Below, one piece after another: positions 1 to 5,105 of a DNA stretch of 23,166 bases. The notes below the pieces were generated by a model. That model saw only the letters and a program-made list of their open reading frames with translations, was not told where the DNA came from and did no database searches. Position 1 is the first letter of the stretch, and each line of letters opens with the position of its first letter. The stretch lies in the IMG/VR virus record IMGVR_UViG_3300001487_000219, one strand, 5' to 3'. The translations under genes were made by a program, and so were the position numbers. This DNA comes from a virus.

Positions 1-587
1 TGATAGTGCCAATTCATATCGACGTTTCCAGAAATTCCCTTTACTTTTCCTTTGCTAGAGTATTGATGATAAATACAATCATAATGAGGAACATCATTAT
101 AATCGGCAAGCCATATTATATATTTTTTTATTGTTGAAGCATCATACCAGTTTTTATAATAATCTTGGTTTAAATAAAATCCAGCTTTGTATCCTTGACT
201 TTCAATATAATCACAAAAGGCATTTGTAAAATCAATACAATTAGTTCTTGTTAATTTAATACCTTTCTTTTTGGCACTATTTACTGTATCATATTCAAAA
301 TCATAGAAAATAATAATATCTTTACCAAGGCCCGCCTCTTCAACGTTTTTAATGCAAGACTTAGCTTCTTTTATTGCGTCATTTTTATTTAATGCATACG
401 CAAAATGATATACGCCATGAATAGCAATGCCCGCATCTTTAAATTTTTTTACATTTGTTAAGAAATGCTTATCTATTGCTTGTCTATATCCCTATCTAAT
501 AATGACAAAATCTATCCCATCATCCTTAATTTTTTTAGCGTCTATATTTCCTTGCCATTGAGAAATATCTATACCTTTTAAAGTCAT
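1..587 (-). CDS. GH25-family lysozyme/muramidase (endolysin). The C-terminal part is cut by the window edge. It contains an in-frame TAG at 494-492 that must be read as sense
   Basis: The minus-strand ATG at 587-585 follows a GAAAGGAGATAAA ribosome-binding site. Translation gives MTLKGIDISQWQGNIDAKKIKDDGIDFVIIR[TAG]GYRQAIDKHFLTNVKKFKDAGIAIHGVYHFAY... The GIDISxWQG and FVII(K/R)xGY motifs are typical of glycoside hydrolase family 25. The frame stays open to position 1 with no other stop. Confidence 0.8.
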
Positions 588-620
588 TTTATCTCCTTTC
601 TAAAAAGAAAAACGGGAGAA

Positions 621-851
621 TTATTCTCCCGTTTCTTCTTGAGTATCTTCAATATCTTTTAATTCAGGCAATCCTGCTAGACTTGTCATAATTGATAAGA
701 TACCAGCTGTGCAAGCTACTGATCCTACATAGATCCAATCTACTTCTTTAAGCGCGGCTCCTACAGTAATCATAGAAGCAAAAGTCTGTGCAAATGTTTT
801 AATTGCACGAATACCAGCAGCTTTTAGCCATCTTTTATTTTTTTCACTCAT
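621..851 (-). CDS. Holin (two transmembrane helices and a charged C-terminal tail; resembles the TcdE/phage holin family)
   Basis: The 76-aa product is MSEKNKRWLKAAGIRAIKTFAQTFASMITVGAAL...WIYVGSVACTAGILSIMTSLAGL followed by an acidic tail, PELKDIEDTQEETGE. The gene lies immediately upstream of the lysozyme on the same strand. There is an AAAGGAGGTG ribosome-binding site, and the stop is TAA. Confidence 0.7.
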   Translation of the reverse strand: MSEKNKRWLKAAGIRAIKTFAQTFASMITVGAALKEVDWIYVGSVACTAGILSIMTSLAGLPELKDIEDTQEETGE

Positions 852-857
852 ACAAAT

Positions 858-900
858 AACACCTCCTTTTGTATATAATTAATATAAAAAAAGAGGTGTT
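858..900 (-). promoter_or_regulatory. Imperfect hairpin that can base-pair the holin Shine-Dalgarno sequence with an upstream anti-SD-like CACCTC element
   Basis: The plus strand has aacacctcctttt (858-870) and aaaaagaggtgtt (888-900), which form an inverted repeat with one mismatch and a loop of about 16 nt. On the minus-strand mRNA the 858-868 arm is the GGAGGTG ribosome-binding site of the holin ATG at 851. Confidence 0.3.
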
Positions 901-909
901 TATATTTAA

Positions 910-1332
910 TTATTCTGACCTTTTATATCTTTCTTTAATGATTTTTAAATAATTTTTATTTGCTTGCAATTCAGTATTAATTTTTAAAATCTCATCTTCA
1001 AGAGATAAAATATTAATACGATACTTTTTCGCAAGTACTTTAAGTCGTTCAATAGCGGCTTCGTTATCTGGGCAAAAATGTGAAAAATCTTTAATTGCAT
1101 CCTGAATAGTATTAAAGCGAATTTTTTCTCTTTTTAATTCTGTAGTATAGAAATCTCTAAATGCCTTTTTCTCTGCAATGCGGCAACCTAAAAATTTACT
1201 TTGGACTGATGTATCTTCGGGATGTACCTTTGCAACTCCTGTAAAATATCCAGATTTTGTTTTTATTACAACGGTAGAGACACCAGTGTCCGCGTCATAT
1301 GTTGATTTAAAAAGTTTTGCTGCCGTTCTCAT
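910..1332 (-). CDS. Hypothetical protein (140 aa, predicted coiled coil at the C-terminus)
   Basis: This is an intact ORF preceded by the ribosome-binding site AAGAAAGGA and terminated by TAA. I recognise no motif in it. Confidence 0.55.
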   Translation of the reverse strand: MRTAAKLFKSTYDADTGVSTVVIKTKSGYFTGVAKVHPEDTSVQSKFLGCRIAEKKAFRDFYTTELKREKIRFNTIQDAIKDFSHFCPDNEAAIERLKVLAKKYRINILSLEDEILKINTELQANKNYLKIIKERYKRSE

Positions 1333-1435
1333 GTTTAGTTCCTTTCTTCTTTCTAATAAAATCTCTAATAATAATAAAAGCCATTTCTACAAAAAGTGTA
1401 CTAAAAATACCTACTAGAACTGGATTTACCGTCAT
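1307..1435 (-). CDS. Possible small membrane peptide (42 aa) overlapping its neighbours
   Basis: Its ATG at 1435-1433 overlaps the TGA of the upstream phosphoesterase gene (ATGA). The product, MTVNPVLVGIFSTLFVEMAFIIIRDFIRKKKGTKHENGSKTF, has one hydrophobic helix and a basic tail. It overlaps the start of the 140-aa gene by 26 nt. It could be a spurious ORF. Confidence 0.2.
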   Translation of the reverse strand: MTVNPVLVGIFSTLFVEMAFIIIRDFIRKKKGTKHENGSKTF

Positions 1436-1974
1436 TTGTTTTTCTCCTTATATTTTTCAATATCTTTAATAATTTGTTCGATACTTACTGGTGTACAATT
1501 ATGAGCATCTACCGCTACATTATAAATACTATATTGCCCAAATTCAAATTTATTAGGGCTATGAGTATGTCCAGATAAATTCCAAAAGAAGCGTTCATCT
1601 TCAAAATTGCTTACAAAAGTAGGATAATGAGAAAGAAAAAATGCTTTTCTTTTATTGTATTTATATATTGAAGCGAAACCAAGATACGTCATATTATATT
1701 CTGTTTGATATTTATTAAGTTTATTTTTTGTATCATGGTTTCCCCAAATAACAATTTTTTCTCCGTTTAATACTTTATAAACCCTGTTCCATTCCTTTTC
1801 ATTTCCGCTCATACAAAGGTCGCCAAGAATGTATACAGTATCTTCTGGAGTAACAACACTATTCCATCTTTTAATAATTTCAGTATCATGTTCTTCTATT
1901 GAAGAGAAGCCGCGCGGCCGCCAAATAAAATCTTTGTCGTGGCCGATATGAAGGTCAGATGTAAAATAAATCAT
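1432..1974 (-). CDS. Calcineurin-like metallophosphoesterase (predicted 2',3'-phosphatase/phosphoesterase of an RNA repair set)
   Basis: The 180-aa product carries the ordered metallophosphoesterase motifs: DLHIGHD (DxH), LGDL (GD), GNHD and GHTH. The start codon lies 1 nt after the kinase TAA. Confidence 0.8.
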   Translation of the reverse strand: MIYFTSDLHIGHDKDFIWRPRGFSSIEEHDTEIIKRWNSVVTPEDTVYILGDLCMSGNEKEWNRVYKVLNGEKIVIWGNHDTKNKLNKYQTEYNMTYLGFASIYKYNKRKAFFLSHYPTFVSNFEDERFFWNLSGHTHSPNKFEFGQYSIYNVAVDAHNCTPVSIEQIIKDIEKYKEKNK

Positions 1975-1975
1975 A

Positions 1976-2467
1976 TTATTTCCTTTCTAAGAGATTCATA
2001 TTTATCCCATCAAAGGTATAGATATAATCAAATGGCTCATTATAAGTAGGAGGTTCTAGTCTAGTATACATATTATGAATTTCATGCGGAGGAACATAGG
2101 CCAAAGTGCCTTTTCTAGTGTCATTACGAGATAGACAAATCTCAAGAGGAATTTTAAAGTAAATTCCTATTATTATTGTTTTTGTCCTATCAATATGTAG
2201 AGCATGAAAAAGTTTGTAACGGCTTTTTAAATTTAAATGGGTGGCGTCTGCGATAACATCTTTCCCATCTGTAATATTTTCATTAATTTGTCGAATAAAT
2301 TCTTTATAGACTTGTTTTTCTTTAGAAAAATAATTGTCTTTTTTATCAATCAATGAAAATCTAATATCGTCTCTTGAGACATGGGTTATTCCTAATAAAT
2401 TCTTTTTAGCAAGGGTAGTTTTGCCTGAACCAGGAATACCCATAAAAACATATAAAATATTTTTCAT
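1976..2467 (-). CDS. pnk: Polynucleotide 5'-hydroxyl kinase, homologous to the T4 Pnk kinase domain (P-loop)
   Basis: GIPGSGKTTLAKK...HVSRDDIRFSL matches T4 Pnk GCPGSGKSTWAREF...NINRDDYRQSI. VIADATHLNLKSRYKLF matches VIISDTNLNPERRLAWETF. LSRNDTRKGTLAYVPPHEIHNMY matches [21 protein letters not shown]. The protein is 163 aa, so it is the kinase domain only. Confidence 0.8.
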   Translation of the reverse strand: MKNILYVFMGIPGSGKTTLAKKNLLGITHVSRDDIRFSLIDKKDNYFSKEKQVYKEFIRQINENITDGKDVIADATHLNLKSRYKLFHALHIDRTKTIIIGIYFKIPLEICLSRNDTRKGTLAYVPPHEIHNMYTRLEPPTYNEPFDYIYTFDGINMNLLERK

Positions 2468-2470
2468 AAT

Positions 2471-2986
2471 TTATCTCTGCCAATCAATCCAATCGTAAGG
2501 AATAGTTTGATTTTGTTCAGGAGTATACCAACGTCCTGAGCGACTTCTTATCTGCCATCTTCTTTCTGCGGTGCTATATCTTTCATTACGTGTTTCTAAA
2601 GTAGTTCCAAAAATATAACGAATACTATTGTCTTTATTTAGTTTTAGAGAAATCCATTTTCTATAGCCTCTTCTTACATAAAAATCATTGGTAATAAGCT
2701 GTCCCGTATAGCTTTCATATGCATACCAACGATTACCGCCATCTCGCAATCTAATTTTACCCTGTGTTAAACTGCCTCTTGGAGAACCAGGAATACTTGT
2801 TTTATGTCCGTAATACCAATGGCCTTCAAACTTAAAGTATCCGGTCATAAGTTTTCCATGTTTAAAAATATAAAGATTTCCTGATTCATCTCCGATGATT
2901 CCGTGGACAAGCTGCCGCTCTTTCATTTGTTCAAAAGTTACTCCAGTTTTCAAGCTATCCTTAGCATAAACTGGATTGGCCATCAA
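2471..2986 (-). CDS. Cell-wall (choline)-binding repeat protein. It is possibly secreted if translation starts at a non-AUG codon upstream (3028 or 3025)
   Basis: It contains repeats of the type GYFKFEGHWYYGHKTS and GGNRWYAYESYTGQ, which fit the GWxKxxGxWYY cell-wall-binding repeat. The in-frame upstream sequence (open back to a TAA) encodes I-I-K-R-L-F-T-I-F-F-I-A-I-V-L-M-A-N-P-V-Y-A, a textbook signal peptide. It has no ATG, GTG or TTG start; an AAAGGAG ribosome-binding site lies 5-8 nt upstream of ATT/ATA. Confidence 0.55.
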   Translation of the reverse strand: MMANPVYAKDSLKTGVTFEQMKERQLVHGIIGDESGNLYIFKHGKLMTGYFKFEGHWYYGHKTSIPGSPRGSLTQGKIRLRDGGNRWYAYESYTGQLITNDFYVRRGYRKWISLKLNKDNSIRYIFGTTLETRNERYSTAERRWQIRSRSGRWYTPEQNQTIPYDWIDWQR

Positions 2987-3058
2987 TACAATAGCAATGA
3001 AAAAAATAGTAAAAAGTCTTTTTATAATATTTGCTCCTTTATTTTATATTTTATATTT

Positions 3059-4282
3059 TTACTGATGAAACTTCAACAAGAACTCATTAGATACTGCCTT
3101 AAAAGATTGCACTCCATCTTCCGAGCGGAAAACAATACCTTCGCGCATATCTCCATCTACCTGAGAAGTATCGGTTGCATATTCTAGCAATTCGTCAACA
3201 GTATCAGGAAGAATGAATTTGCTATTGATAACTGGCACGCAAGGAATCCGGTAATAATCTTCAAGCAACTCTCTCATTTTAAGAGTATTGAATCTACCCT
3301 TATCAGATGTAATTAGGTTAAATGCCATAAAATCATGTCCATTCAGATGATAATCTCTCTTCTGTACTCCTGCCCCATAAGTTTCTCCCTGAATTGTAAT
3401 CCATTCTGCTTCAGGGAACAAACTCAACATTTCAGTTAGAACATGTTCAATATGGTATTTTTCTGCCATCTCGGTATAAATATTAGTTTCATAAAAGCAA
3501 GTTTTGTCAGGCTTATCAAAACAAACATTTCGAGAGCAAACATAGAACTCATTTTTGTGAGGCCATTTTCCTCTTTTGATAGTGAAAGTAGTTGAAGAAC
3601 CATCAATCTTTTCGGTTGCAATCCAAGGGTCCTTATTCTGAAGAATCCAAGGCATATTCTGTACTCTTTCTTCATCAGTTTTCTTTACCCAGGCAGGCCA
3701 ACCAGTTTTATCCCTTTTCTTTCCAAAGAAAATGAAAAGAAGTTTCTTTCCCCATTCCCGTTTCATAAGCCAGCGGAAAGGCTGTTTTGCAAAAAGTTTA
3801 CCATGACGCTGAGCCATTTTCTTATATTTATCTGCGGAAGGAGCTTTGCGGGCGTTATCTTCTGCGACATAATAAGTTACCCCAAGCTGTTTAGTGAGGA
3901 AACGAGAATCATTTCCAGCATTATGTTCAACCCCGTTAGAGTCATGAATAGAATAACCATAATTATGATTTTCTATTGTCCATCCGAAATTTGCGGCAGA
4001 AATAAGAAGTCCCTGAGAAATAGAACGGCACATTTTTTGAGTCTTTACGCGGTATTTCTTTTTCGCAAGAAAATCCATATTAATAAAAGGCTCTACTTCA
4101 GGAAGTTTTGAGTCAATTTCAAAGTAAATTGCAGGGTCGCCCGCTTTAAACTCTCCCTTTCCAACAACGATAGTCCATCCGCCCACATGAGCAAGTTCTA
4201 CTCTATCATATCCTTCGATAGGAGTAATATCGTCAATGGTTACAACATAAGCAAGTTCTCTTTCGTTATTTGCATTAAGCAT
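3059..4282 (-). CDS. ATP-dependent RNA ligase (covalent nucleotidyltransferase; the N-terminal extension before the NTase domain suggests an Rnl5-like architecture)
   Basis: The 407-aa product has motif I, ATEKIDGSS, with the lysine near residue 220. It also has the motif IV/V-like EGIVFR...KAVSNEFLLK. An N-terminal domain of about 200 aa (YVVTIDDITPIEGYDRVELAHVGGWTIVVGKGEFKAGD) precedes the catalytic lysine. Confidence 0.8.
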   Translation of the reverse strand: MLNANNERELAYVVTIDDITPIEGYDRVELAHVGGWTIVVGKGEFKAGDPAIYFEIDSKLPEVEPFINMDFLAKKKYRVKTQKMCRSISQGLLISAANFGWTIENHNYGYSIHDSNGVEHNAGNDSRFLTKQLGVTYYVAEDNARKAPSADKYKKMAQRHGKLFAKQPFRWLMKREWGKKLLFIFFGKKRDKTGWPAWVKKTDEERVQNMPWILQNKDPWIATEKIDGSSTTFTIKRGKWPHKNEFYVCSRNVCFDKPDKTCFYETNIYTEMAEKYHIEHVLTEMLSLFPEAEWITIQGETYGAGVQKRDYHLNGHDFMAFNLITSDKGRFNTLKMRELLEDYYRIPCVPVINSKFILPDTVDELLEYATDTSQVDGDMREGIVFRSEDGVQSFKAVSNEFLLKFHQ

Positions 4283-4445
4283 AGAAGAATCCTCCTTTCA
4301 TATCTTCATTATTAATAATTCTTTCAATAAAGAAAATTTTTTCTTTATCTGAAAGGAAATTACTTTTTAATATTTTTTTTATGTTATCTATTTGATATTC
4401 CATTCTGAGGTAATCCTCATTTTCATCTGGGTCAAACATTCCCAT
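4275..4445 (-). CDS. Small hypothetical ORF (56 aa) bridging the 86-aa gene and the RNA ligase
   Basis: MGMFDPDENEDYLRMEYQIDNIKKILKSNFLSDKEKIFFIERIINNEDMKGGFFYA. Its TAA overlaps the ligase ATG (ATGCTTAA). It is below the 60-aa cutoff of the ORF track. Confidence 0.25.
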   Translation of the reverse strand: MGMFDPDENEDYLRMEYQIDNIKKILKSNFLSDKEKIFFIERIINNEDMKGGFFYA

Positions 4446-4447
4446 AA

Positions 4448-4708
4448 TCAATCTTCCCTTTCTGTCAGTGTTGTAAATTCCTCAAGACGTAAACTTAAAA
4501 CATCGTCCTCAATATAAAAAATATCATTACCGTAAGTAGATTCATTCCAGGTTATGAACATAGTTAGAAGTTGGCCTACTCGCAAACTAGGGTGCTTATG
4601 ATGAAGTGCTTTAAAATCATCCCAAAAACTCATAATTTCTATGAATCTTTGAATACATGTATCTTCACTCTTGTTATTAATAGCATTAAGTCTCTTATTA
4701 TTTGTCAT
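4448..4708 (-). CDS. Hypothetical protein (86 aa)
   Basis: This is an intact ORF with a TGA stop. I recognise no motif in it. Confidence 0.5.
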   Translation of the reverse strand: MTNNKRLNAINNKSEDTCIQRFIEIMSFWDDFKALHHKHPSLRVGQLLTMFITWNESTYGNDIFYIEDDVLSLRLEEFTTLTERED

Positions 4709-4711
4709 TTC

Positions 4712-4825
4712 TTATTTCCTTATTAAATTTTTAATTAATGTTATTAATGCAATATCCAGCACAATTAAACATAGTATTAATGAGATAAAACTTGTTGCAA
4801 TAAAAATATTAAATAAAATATCCAT
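4712..4825 (-). CDS. Possible small hydrophobic peptide (37 aa, one transmembrane helix)
   Basis: MDILFNIFIATSFISLILCLIVLDIALITLIKNLIRK is tightly packed between the 65-aa and 86-aa genes. It could be spurious. Confidence 0.2.
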   Translation of the reverse strand: MDILFNIFIATSFISLILCLIVLDIALITLIKNLIRK

Positions 4826-4828
4826 TTT

Positions 4829-5026
4829 TTATCCTATCGGCATACCTAAACTTTTAAATTTAATTTTTTCAAAAATTTCTGCAATCCATGTCGCTTGAAC
4901 CATACCATTTTCTACTGGATACTTTTTTAATTCTTTATAAAAATCCTCGATATAAATAGCTTCTGTAGGTCGTTTTTTCCATTCTCCATAAAAATCATTT
5001 TTCATTTTTTCATTTCCTTTTCTCAT
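4829..5026 (-). CDS. Hypothetical protein (65 aa, or 58 aa if translation starts at the second ATG, which has a better AAAGGAA ribosome-binding site)
   Basis: The ORF has a TAA stop. The first ATG at 5026 lacks a ribosome-binding site; the ATG at 5005 has one. Confidence 0.45.
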   Translation of the reverse strand: MRKGNEKMKNDFYGEWKKRPTEAIYIEDFYKELKKYPVENGMVQATWIAEIFEKIKFKSLGMPIG

Positions 5027-5055
5027 TTCTTATAAATAAATTTTATCAAAAATTT

Positions 5056-5097
5056 ATAAAAAAAGCAAGAAAAATTGTTTGACCAATTTTTCTTGCT
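5056..5097 (-). terminator. Intrinsic terminator immediately after the MVP-like gene
   Basis: A perfect 14-bp stem, agcaagaaaaattg (5064-5077) paired with caatttttcttgct (5084-5097), has a 6-nt loop. On the minus-strand transcript it is followed by a U-run (TTTTTTTA). Confidence 0.65.
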
Positions 5098-5105
5098 TAT
5101 AAAAA

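Follow-up and report, generated by a model that had tools for sequence, protein, structure and literature searches.

RNA healing and sealing is already known as a phage answer to host RNases. The ATP-dependent RNA ligases of phages accompany a polynucleotide kinase and an interchangeable phosphoesterase, which is occasionally calcineurin-like (PMC7824862). A further combination of this kind lies on the minus strand of the stretch described here, IMG/VR virus record IMGVR_UViG_3300001487_000219 (the window, 23,166 nucleotides (nt) in all), where a standalone P-loop polynucleotide 5'-kinase of 163 amino acids (aa; 1976..2467) is found together with a calcineurin-like binuclear metallophosphoesterase of the aq_1665 type (180 aa; 1432..1974) and an ATP-dependent RNA ligase assigned to the Rnl5 family (407 aa; 3059..4282). 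On balance, the three genes probably constitute one RNA healing-and-sealing pathway. They come from a large phage of gut or rumen in which TAG is a sense codon, and megablast of window positions 1-8000 against 50,697 cultured-phage records returned zero matches.

Several described systems come close to this one. Pnk and Rnl1 (and Rnl2) of phage T4 likewise supply a phage 5'-kinase, a 3'-end phosphoesterase and an ATP-dependent RNA ligase, and the kinase domains are homologous, with motifs that correspond one to one. The T4 kinase is, however, fused to a HAD phosphatase, whereas here a standalone kinase is accompanied by a separate calcineurin-like enzyme, and the ligase is of Rnl5 type, with an N-terminal OB domain and no C-terminal domain, rather than Rnl1 or Rnl2; nor is a PrrC-type target known for this phage. 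An earlier sequence-only reading of this DNA had drawn the analogy to anticodon-loop repair by T4 Rnl1, which is not the closest one, since the studied Rnl5 members seal duplex nicks. The same reading saw a resemblance to bacterial Pnkp/Hen1 systems. The Pnkp/Hen1 system of Clostridium thermocellum and the Pnkp1-Rnl-Hen1 system of Capnocytophaga gingivalis do share the complement of kinase, binuclear metallophosphoesterase and ligase, and the present kinase is nearest by sequence to the CthPnkp kinase domain (E = 2.7e-17), with Pnkp1 also matching (8.1e-14); in the Pnkp1 system, too, the ligase is a separate protein. The resemblance holds for this modular make-up and stops there: the activities are spread here over three polypeptides, the phosphoesterase is placed in the aq_1665 clade, the ligase is Rnl5 and not Rnl4, and the genes called within 10 kb on the source contig include no Hen1 methyltransferase.

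With DraRnl of Deinococcus radiodurans and NgrRnl of Naegleria gruberi the ligase shares a two-domain architecture and the catalytic residues, but it is about 65 aa longer by insertions in the linker and is linked to end-healing genes, the operon partner of DraRnl being a DEDDh-like protein. Rnl5 enzymes seal duplex nicks in which the 3'-OH strand is RNA, DNA being accepted elsewhere; they occur in bacterial viruses, and their physiological functions have been described as uncharted (PMC5397189). The kinase/phosphoesterase/ligase pattern is found as well in Bacillus phages of the Tsamsa/Thrax group and in Pseudomonas phage Milchi, where, in contrast to the present locus, the phosphoesterase is of HD or HAD type and fused to the kinase, and the ligases are Rnl1- or Rnl2-type. 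Finally, the same ligase family occurs in the stop-codon-recoded gut phages that carry theta ribozymes (Kienbeck et al. 2024, PMC10879173). End-healing genes are unmentioned in that study, no theta ribozyme was found in the present lineage, and the motifs tabulated there for a ligase-bearing genome and for certain code-15 genomes are TAA-type (not Shine-Dalgarno, SD), whereas the ribosome-binding sites of this phage are SD-type.

The proposed pathway is argued from the fold identities of the three products, from catalytic residues that are intact in each, and from a linkage that is conserved. Open reading frame (ORF) calls bore out the minus-strand coordinates of the sequence-only reading, and its placing of the ligase two genes upstream of the kinase, with a single ORF (2471-2986) between them; its family assignments of AAA_33/PNK, Metallophos and RNA_ligase held in profile searches. 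A single nucleotide separates the kinase stop from the phosphoesterase start, and the 3' end of the kinase gene contains a Shine-Dalgarno sequence, GAAAGGAAAT; the phosphoesterase is probably translationally coupled to the kinase.

Linkage was followed in 80 related viral loci, on contigs of up to 240 kb, that were obtained by an IMG/VR scan with the ligase as query and whose ligases are 58-92% identical to it; only ligase-anchored loci with at least 3 kb of downstream sequence (68 of the 80) entered the count. The three genes are co-directional within 3 kb in 53 of these 68 loci, with a gap between kinase and phosphoesterase of about 40 nt (median) and of 5-125 nt in most loci. In eight further loci the kinase and phosphoesterase genes lie at other places within 10 kb, and in seven of these they are neighbours. 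The gene order is kept down to about 38% kinase/phosphoesterase identity, and also in contigs from rumen and rabbit gut, binned into metagenome-assembled genomes (MAGs) and added to the comparison, in which the ligase is 44-45% identical. Related contigs were binned with MAGs of Clostridia, Lachnospiraceae, Erysipelotrichaceae and Bacilli. Altogether the three-gene linkage is seen across approximately 90 related metagenomic loci, amid neighbouring genes that vary. Such an arrangement goes beyond chance, and a kinase-phosphoesterase pair that stays tight when the locus is rearranged speaks for selection. The joint healing-and-sealing function that had been proposed draws support from the conserved linkage.

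The kinase matches Pfam AAA_33 (2.1e-16), and also KTI12, and the 'polynucleotide kinase' family phrog_505 (3.5e-19). When all PDB sequences were queried with a profile built from 20 members of the family (E<=1e-3 together with a significant aligned stretch), the only matches were polynucleotide kinases and PSTK: the CthPnkp kinase and Pnkp1, as given above, PSTK (3.4e-15), T4 Pnk (3.1e-12) and mammalian PNKP (1.6e-7). Zeta toxin, adenylate kinase and AAA ATPase were considered as identities for the kinase and rejected, none of them appearing in this search. The motif-by-motif correspondence with T4 Pnk noted earlier was recovered by hhalign (probability 98.3%) using a T4 sequence that agrees with 1ltq over its full length; only T4 residues 2-154 align, so that the 163-aa protein corresponds to the T4 kinase domain by itself and has no HAD phosphatase domain or other fused 3'-phosphatase. 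The aligned motifs are the P-loop (GIPGSGKTT here, GCPGSGKST in T4), RDDxR (SRDDIR and NRDDYR; D33 and R36), DAT (ADATHLN and SDTNLN; D74) and the lid RNxxR(K)G (RNDTRKG and RNSKRG; R118). P-loop residues G10-T17 with K16/T17, the predicted general base D33, R36, D74 and R118 are invariant in 66 homologues; we take their T4 counterparts to be K15/S16, D35, R38, D85 and R126. Among the best 120 of 316 kinase homologues, lengths run from 140 to 201 aa and a second domain is recorded in none.

PSTK nearly equals the Pnk enzymes in these scores, and the best NCBIfam match of the kinase is PSTK (3.8e-12), although the C-terminal tRNA-binding domain of PSTK is absent. It is gene context only that favours Pnk over PSTK. 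In cultured phages, the nearest kinase homologues (28-33% identity) are fusions of two kinds, kinase-HD beside an Rnl1-type ligase in Bacillus phage Thrax2 and kinase-HAD near an Rnl2-type ligase in Pseudomonas phage Milchi.

In the ligase, Pfam recognizes the PHA02142 OB-fold (PF21189, residues 10-94, 5.8e-19) and RNA_ligase (PF09414, residues 218-397, 1e-20), and phrog_968 matches at 1.7e-65. The protein is laid out as an OB domain (about 8-100), a conserved linker with insertion (about 101-200) and a nucleotidyltransferase domain (about 195-404), and it ends 12 residues past motif V, with no C-terminal appendage. Among solved structures it matches only entries for the Naegleria gruberi RNA ligase, both domains aligning (5cot best, E=4e-32). 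Motif I reads EKIDGSS against KLDGSS in NgrRnl, with K225 as nucleophile and the KxDG signature formed by K225-I-D227-G228; motif III reads QGET against QGEI (E300), motif IV REGIVF against REGLVF (E381-G382) and motif V SFKAVS against SFKAIS (K395). Motifs I, III, IV and V are thus all present, and their residues are invariant in 88 homologues. These features assign the ligase, which is not Rnl1-like, to the Rnl5 (DraRnl/NgrRnl) family, a group marked biochemically by Mn2+-dependent sealing of duplex nicks that have a ribonucleotide 3'-OH end. The sequence-only reading, which had found a KxDG ligase with an N-terminal extension, was right about the signature; in view of the N-terminal OB domain and the NgrRnl match, the supposed extension is the defining OB domain of Rnl5. 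The best NCBIfam model is TIGR02306 (RNA_lig_DRB0094, 1.9e-33), and the score stays under its equivalog cut-off (115.8 vs 151.15 bits) because the match is split in two by the linker insertion; the Pfam domain cut-offs are passed.

About 65 extra interdomain-linker residues set this ligase clade apart from NgrRnl and from the Rnl5-like ligases of cultured Pseudomonas and Microbacterium phages. The linker holds a strongly conserved basic-hydrophobic stretch, DKYKKMAQRHGKLFAKQPFRWLMKREWGKKLLFIFFGKKRDK (151-192), and the AlphaFold2 model of the ligase (mean predicted local distance difference test score, pLDDT, 56.5; below 50 in the linker insertion) is too uncertain for the fold of the insertion to be interpreted. 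The metagenomic ligase family is very abundant, with at least 7,993 homologues. In cultured phages, Rnl5-like ligases at less than 35% identity occur in Pakpunavirus, Aeromonas T4-like, jumbo and Microbacterium phages, and in Microbacterium phage A3Wally a large tRNA array surrounds the gene.

The phosphoesterase scores above the cut-off for Pfam Metallophos (2.3e-8) and matches phrog_547 (3.3e-46). All its metal-binding motifs are present (D7-x-H9, G51-D52, G78-N79-H80, H116 and G135-H136-x-H138), and across 68 homologues their residues either do not vary or are conserved at 93% or more. By sequence, the closest solved structure is Aquifex aq_1665 (1xm7, E=4.7e-12), which is also the best fold match of the AlphaFold model (pLDDT 89; template-modelling score, TM, 0.70); with low scores, GpdQ and Rv0805 (both phosphodiesterases) and Mre11 come after it, and neither Pnkp phosphatase nor lambda phosphatase is among the matches of the sequence and fold searches. 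Sequence and modelled fold together place the enzyme in the aq_1665 / phrog_547 clade, and not in the Pnkp/lambda type. From its gene context we infer that it acts as a 2',3'-cyclic-phosphodiesterase / 3'-phosphatase; the clade being uncharacterized and phrog_547 often occurring without a ligase, it is that context by which a role on 2',3'-cyclic or 3'-phosphate ends is assigned.

The genes are carried in a standard-code (non-late) block, from which they would be expressed as a split end-healing and sealing pathway. A transesterifying ribonuclease, for which a host anticodon nuclease, a HEPN or toxin RNase and a CRISPR-associated RNase are candidates, would cut an RNA to leave a 5'-OH and a 2',3'-cyclic-phosphate (or 3'-phosphate) end. 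The 163-aa kinase would then move a phosphate from a nucleoside triphosphate to the 5'-OH end, the metallophosphoesterase would open and remove the 2',3'-cyclic phosphate or 3'-phosphate to give a 3'-OH, and the ligase, adenylylated on K225, would transfer AMP to the 5'-phosphate and seal the break. Because the characterized Rnl5 enzymes seal duplex nicks, the substrate is most likely a break in base-paired or structured RNA (tRNA, rRNA or another folded RNA) and not free single strands. Links of the ligase family to tRNA biology are counted in favour of this pathway: the A3Wally array, the tRNA arrays near the ligase in distant relatives, and the enrichment of the DRB0094 family in recoded gut phages (PMC10879173). 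The clearest contextual argument for a phage Rnl5 acting on 5'-OH / 2',3'-cyclic-phosphate breaks is that, over deep divergence, its gene stays together with those of a kinase for the 5' end and a phosphoesterase for the 3' end. This gives Rnl5 a testable job, and the cassette role, if true, would give a function to the aq_1665 / phrog_547 phosphoesterase clade. It would also bear on the Rnl5 enrichment in recoded gut phages, for which end repair or maturation is chemically more plausible than the aminoacylation that has been guessed (PMC10879173).

A number of points weigh against an RNA healing-and-sealing pathway. Every activity, the RNA substrate and the counter-defence role are ones that we infer; the window holds no tRNA gene (ARAGORN), no candidate RNA substrate and no nuclease inhibitor. 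Judged by sequence alone, the kinase cannot be told from PSTK-type tRNA kinases. The phosphoesterase clade has no characterized member, its closest solved structure is of unknown function, and phrog_547 is present in 1,619 cultured-phage records, often with no RNA ligase nearby; in the Listeria and Enterococcus phages that were inspected these phosphoesterases are not tightly linked to RNA ligases. The characterized Rnl5 enzymes have no known physiological substrate, and DraRnl is tied to post-irradiation DNA repair (PMC5397189). The ligase is kept without the kinase in loci L045 and L047, and without both healing genes in, for example, L056, L061, L075 and L077. All loci, moreover, come from one broad phage lineage; shared ancestry therefore accounts for part of the linkage signal, and the synteny may in part be inherited rather than selected.

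The best supported alternative, in itself unlikely, is that the substrates are nicks in DNA, or at junctions of RNA with DNA, and that the three enzymes mend them while the phage replicates, recombines or resists host nucleases. Nicks bearing 5'-OH and 3'-phosphate ends would be cleaned by kinase and phosphoesterase, and those whose 3'-OH strand ends in ribonucleotides would be sealed by the Rnl5 ligase. This agrees with the finding that Rnl5 requires RNA only on the 3'-OH side of the nick, and with the effect of deleting DraRnl, which leaves Deinococcus sensitive to ionising radiation and delays reassembly of its genome (PMC5397189). On the source contig the cassette belongs to a block of nucleic-acid metabolism, in which gyrB, gyrA and an NAD-dependent DNA ligase, along with a second metallophosphoesterase, are all within 9 kb, and the cassette phosphoesterase has weak similarity to the ligase-associated DNA-damage phosphoesterase PdeM (3.3e-5) and to Mre11 folds. 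These last similarities, however, fall far under the family thresholds, and the phage already encodes a dedicated DNA ligase; the closest relatives of the kinase in cultured phages adjoin Rnl1 and Rnl2 RNA ligases, and Rnl5-like ligases are found in or beside the tRNA arrays of other phages.

Somewhat more doubtful still is a role in maturing phage tRNAs, in which the phosphoesterase would clear a 2',3'-cyclic phosphate before CCA addition while kinase and ligase process or rejoin other fragments. After HDV-type (hepatitis delta virus) cleavage the upstream product, in this case the tRNA, ends in a 2',3'-cyclic phosphate, and a phosphoesterase would therefore be needed before CCA is added. In recoded gut phages, HDV-like theta ribozymes cut exactly at tRNA 3' ends, 95.5% of the tRNAs have no encoded CCA, and the 'RNA ligase, DRB0094 family' is 140-fold enriched, an aminoacylation role having been guessed for it (PMC10879173). 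Relatives of the present phage with large tRNA arrays, ROOL and drum RNAs and group I introns near the ligase fit the same picture. Yet a scan for theta ribozymes, with the region layout rebuilt from Supplementary Data 1 of PMC10879173 and the positive control recovered, gave 0 matches in 1.47 Mb (the window and 106 loci), and Rfam in E-value mode found no HDV-like element on three tRNA-rich loci. Many tRNAs of the relatives lie 6-20 nt apart, which leaves no space for a ribozyme, and there is no tRNA in the window; when close relatives were anchored on the source contig's DNA ligase gene, they too had none within 10 kb of it. The theta-ribozyme phages, for their part, include code-15 genomes with TAA-type sites and about 90% predicted Bacteroidota hosts (PMC10879173), whereas the sites of this phage are SD-type.

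Quite improbable is the view that there is no single pathway, only inherited synteny of a phosphoesterase that degrades signalling nucleotides or small phosphodiesters (an anti-defence function) and a kinase that acts on nucleotides or aminoacyl-tRNA, for although phrog_547 phosphoesterases are widespread without ligase partners, GpdQ and Rv0805 come next after aq_1665 in the fold ranking, PSTK is the best NCBIfam match of the kinase and the ligase persists without its two partners in several relatives, kinase and phosphoesterase remain a tight pair even away from the ligase, the kinase has no PSTK tRNA-binding domain, and kinase, phosphoesterase and ligase are the exact make-up of known healing-sealing enzymes.

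An RNA healing-and-sealing pathway might also be more specialized than has been set out above. As an equally improbable extension of it, the three enzymes could be a dedicated machine for the ends of translation RNAs, which clears 2',3'-cyclic phosphates and rejoins broken phage tRNAs, the TAG suppressor included, and which in most relatives would be joined by a zinc-ribbon protein of about 95 aa and often by an SPFH-fold scaffold (a major vault protein homologue or a Band-7 protein). If true, it would protect or gate the switch to the phage's own code, and it would provide the first physiological substrate of an Rnl5 enzyme.

The recoding itself is well marked. The plus-strand late and structural genes (8176-23166) are open only with TAG as sense, and eight plus-strand ORFs hold 22, 13, 5, 13, 2, 4, 1 and 1 in-frame TAGs (61 in total); one TAG-containing ORF aligns, through several TAG positions, with a tail-protein PHROG and with phrog_32343. 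TAG serves as the stop of no gene in the window, those of the minus strand included. This phage recodes TAG in its late genes, as the sequence-only reading had supposed in proposing that dependence on a suppressor tRNA may make tRNA repair especially important, but a special link between the two is unsupported: the window encodes no tRNA, and among 43 related loci of at least 15 kb the presence of the cassette shows no association with a local TAG-recoding signal, the kinase-phosphoesterase pair being found in 21/25 loci with the signal and in 15/18 without it. One relative, L075 (ligase 71% identical), gains in coding coverage from 0.53 to 0.86 when TGA, not TAG, is taken as sense, and different stop-codon reassignments may exist within the ligase-bearing lineage.

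Rfam found no tRNA-like, Y-RNA-like or ribozyme element in the window. In several of the more distant relatives there are tRNA arrays within 10 kb of the ligase, in which the close tRNA spacing mentioned above is seen. Among the large arrays near the ligase in distant relatives are a ROOL RNA (328 bits), a drum RNA (73 bits) and group I introns, and the ROOL, drum, group I intron and tRNA-array sites, a few kb from the ligase, are at L061 1882-2465, L080 1918-2029, L057 1617-1834 and L061 4922-5231. L061 also encodes a tRNA of 87 nt whose anticodon is CUA and whose variable arm is long.

The position between ligase and kinase is a variable slot. In the window it is filled by a 171-aa ORF (2471..2986, minus strand), present in just 3 of the 80 viral loci; in contigs whose kinase is identical, a 184-aa or a 125-aa ORF takes its place. 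The product is of secreted type with a weak cell-wall/choline-binding-like repeat (Choline_bind_3, 0.0084 only), and the ORF is probably not part of the repair function. Its frame extends upstream as ...IIKRLFTIFFIAIVLMANPVYA..., a signal peptide (window 2471-3013). The ATG of L002 (MKKLFTIFF...) is ATA/ATT here (IIKRLFTIFF...), with a good SD still upstream; the start thus appears mutated, which would mean either a non-canonical start or a decaying gene. In 49 relatives the slot is occupied by the zinc-ribbon gene (e.g. L013 11323-11631), which makes a four-gene cassette there and is absent from the window. The encoded protein, CxxC...GHLKKLYCxxC...NFDxxGNRKEP, matches phrog_1257, 'ribosome associated inhibitor A; zinc finger domain' (5.6e-10). 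In L045 (11962-13505) the zinc-ribbon gene replaces the kinase, and the phosphoesterase gene is seemingly interrupted by a 327-aa ORF whose N-terminus looks, by eye, like that of a GIY-YIG homing endonuclease.

Upstream of the ligase, also on the minus strand, lies an 829-aa gene (5106-7595; MVP_shoulder 1.9e-23, Vault_3 2.7e-8) whose product is a homologue of the eukaryotic major vault protein (MVP), with a promoter-like site of its own at 8245-8217. Of the 80 viral loci, 19 have an MVP-like gene upstream of the ligase, as do four MAG contigs, even at 44% ligase identity. Phage MVPs were reported in a 2023 preprint, in which neighbouring RNA-repair genes and recoding are unmentioned (10.1101/2023.11.10.566534). 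Eight relatives, some without kinase and phosphoesterase, encode membrane-anchored SPFH/Band-7 proteins (PF01145) about 0.1-4.5 kb from the ligase; these are L075 (11399-12301, 3e-25), L077 (12892-13782, 1e-26), L028, L059, L067, L069, L071 and L094. The shoulder domain of the MVP-like product presumably has the SPFH fold, and the occurrence of Band-7 proteins and the MVP-like gene suggests that the ligase is recurrently paired with an SPFH scaffold.

The cassette is part of a compact minus-strand run of standard-code genes (window 1-8187), which in transcription order begins with a 182-aa ORF (7636-8184) and the MVP-like gene. The latter is followed by a strong intrinsic terminator (5063..5098; 15-bp stem and T-run, -23.5 kcal/mol, z = -5.67), which is likely the upstream boundary of the ligase-kinase-phosphoesterase transcription unit and is the one structure found when the intergenic regions of the cassette were folded. 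The predicted unit opens with three small ORFs of 65, 86 and 58 aa (4275..5026) that match no family in Pfam or PHROGs; the last overlaps the ligase start by 8 nt, and in 24 of the 80 viral loci the 86-aa ORF precedes the ligase. Downstream of the phosphoesterase the same strand carries a 42-aa ORF, then a 140-aa ORF, an r1t-type holin (621-851; PF16945, 1.8e-15) and, directly after the holin, the start of a GH25/CHAP endolysin gene (3-620). A terminator-like hairpin at the end of the holin gene (608..636; 13-bp stem and T-run) is likely the downstream boundary of a unit that comprises ligase, variable ORF, kinase, phosphoesterase, the 42-aa and 140-aa ORFs and holin. The endolysin holds an in-frame TAG (...VIIR*GYRQ...), and lysis may depend both on read-through of the terminator (608-636) and on TAG suppression. 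Beyond window position 1 the source contig (L083 13615-20492) continues downstream of the lysis genes with gyrB, gyrA and the second metallophosphoesterase (190 aa). The NAD-dependent DNA ligase gene lies two genes further on, forming a second phosphoesterase-ligase pairing in this phage.

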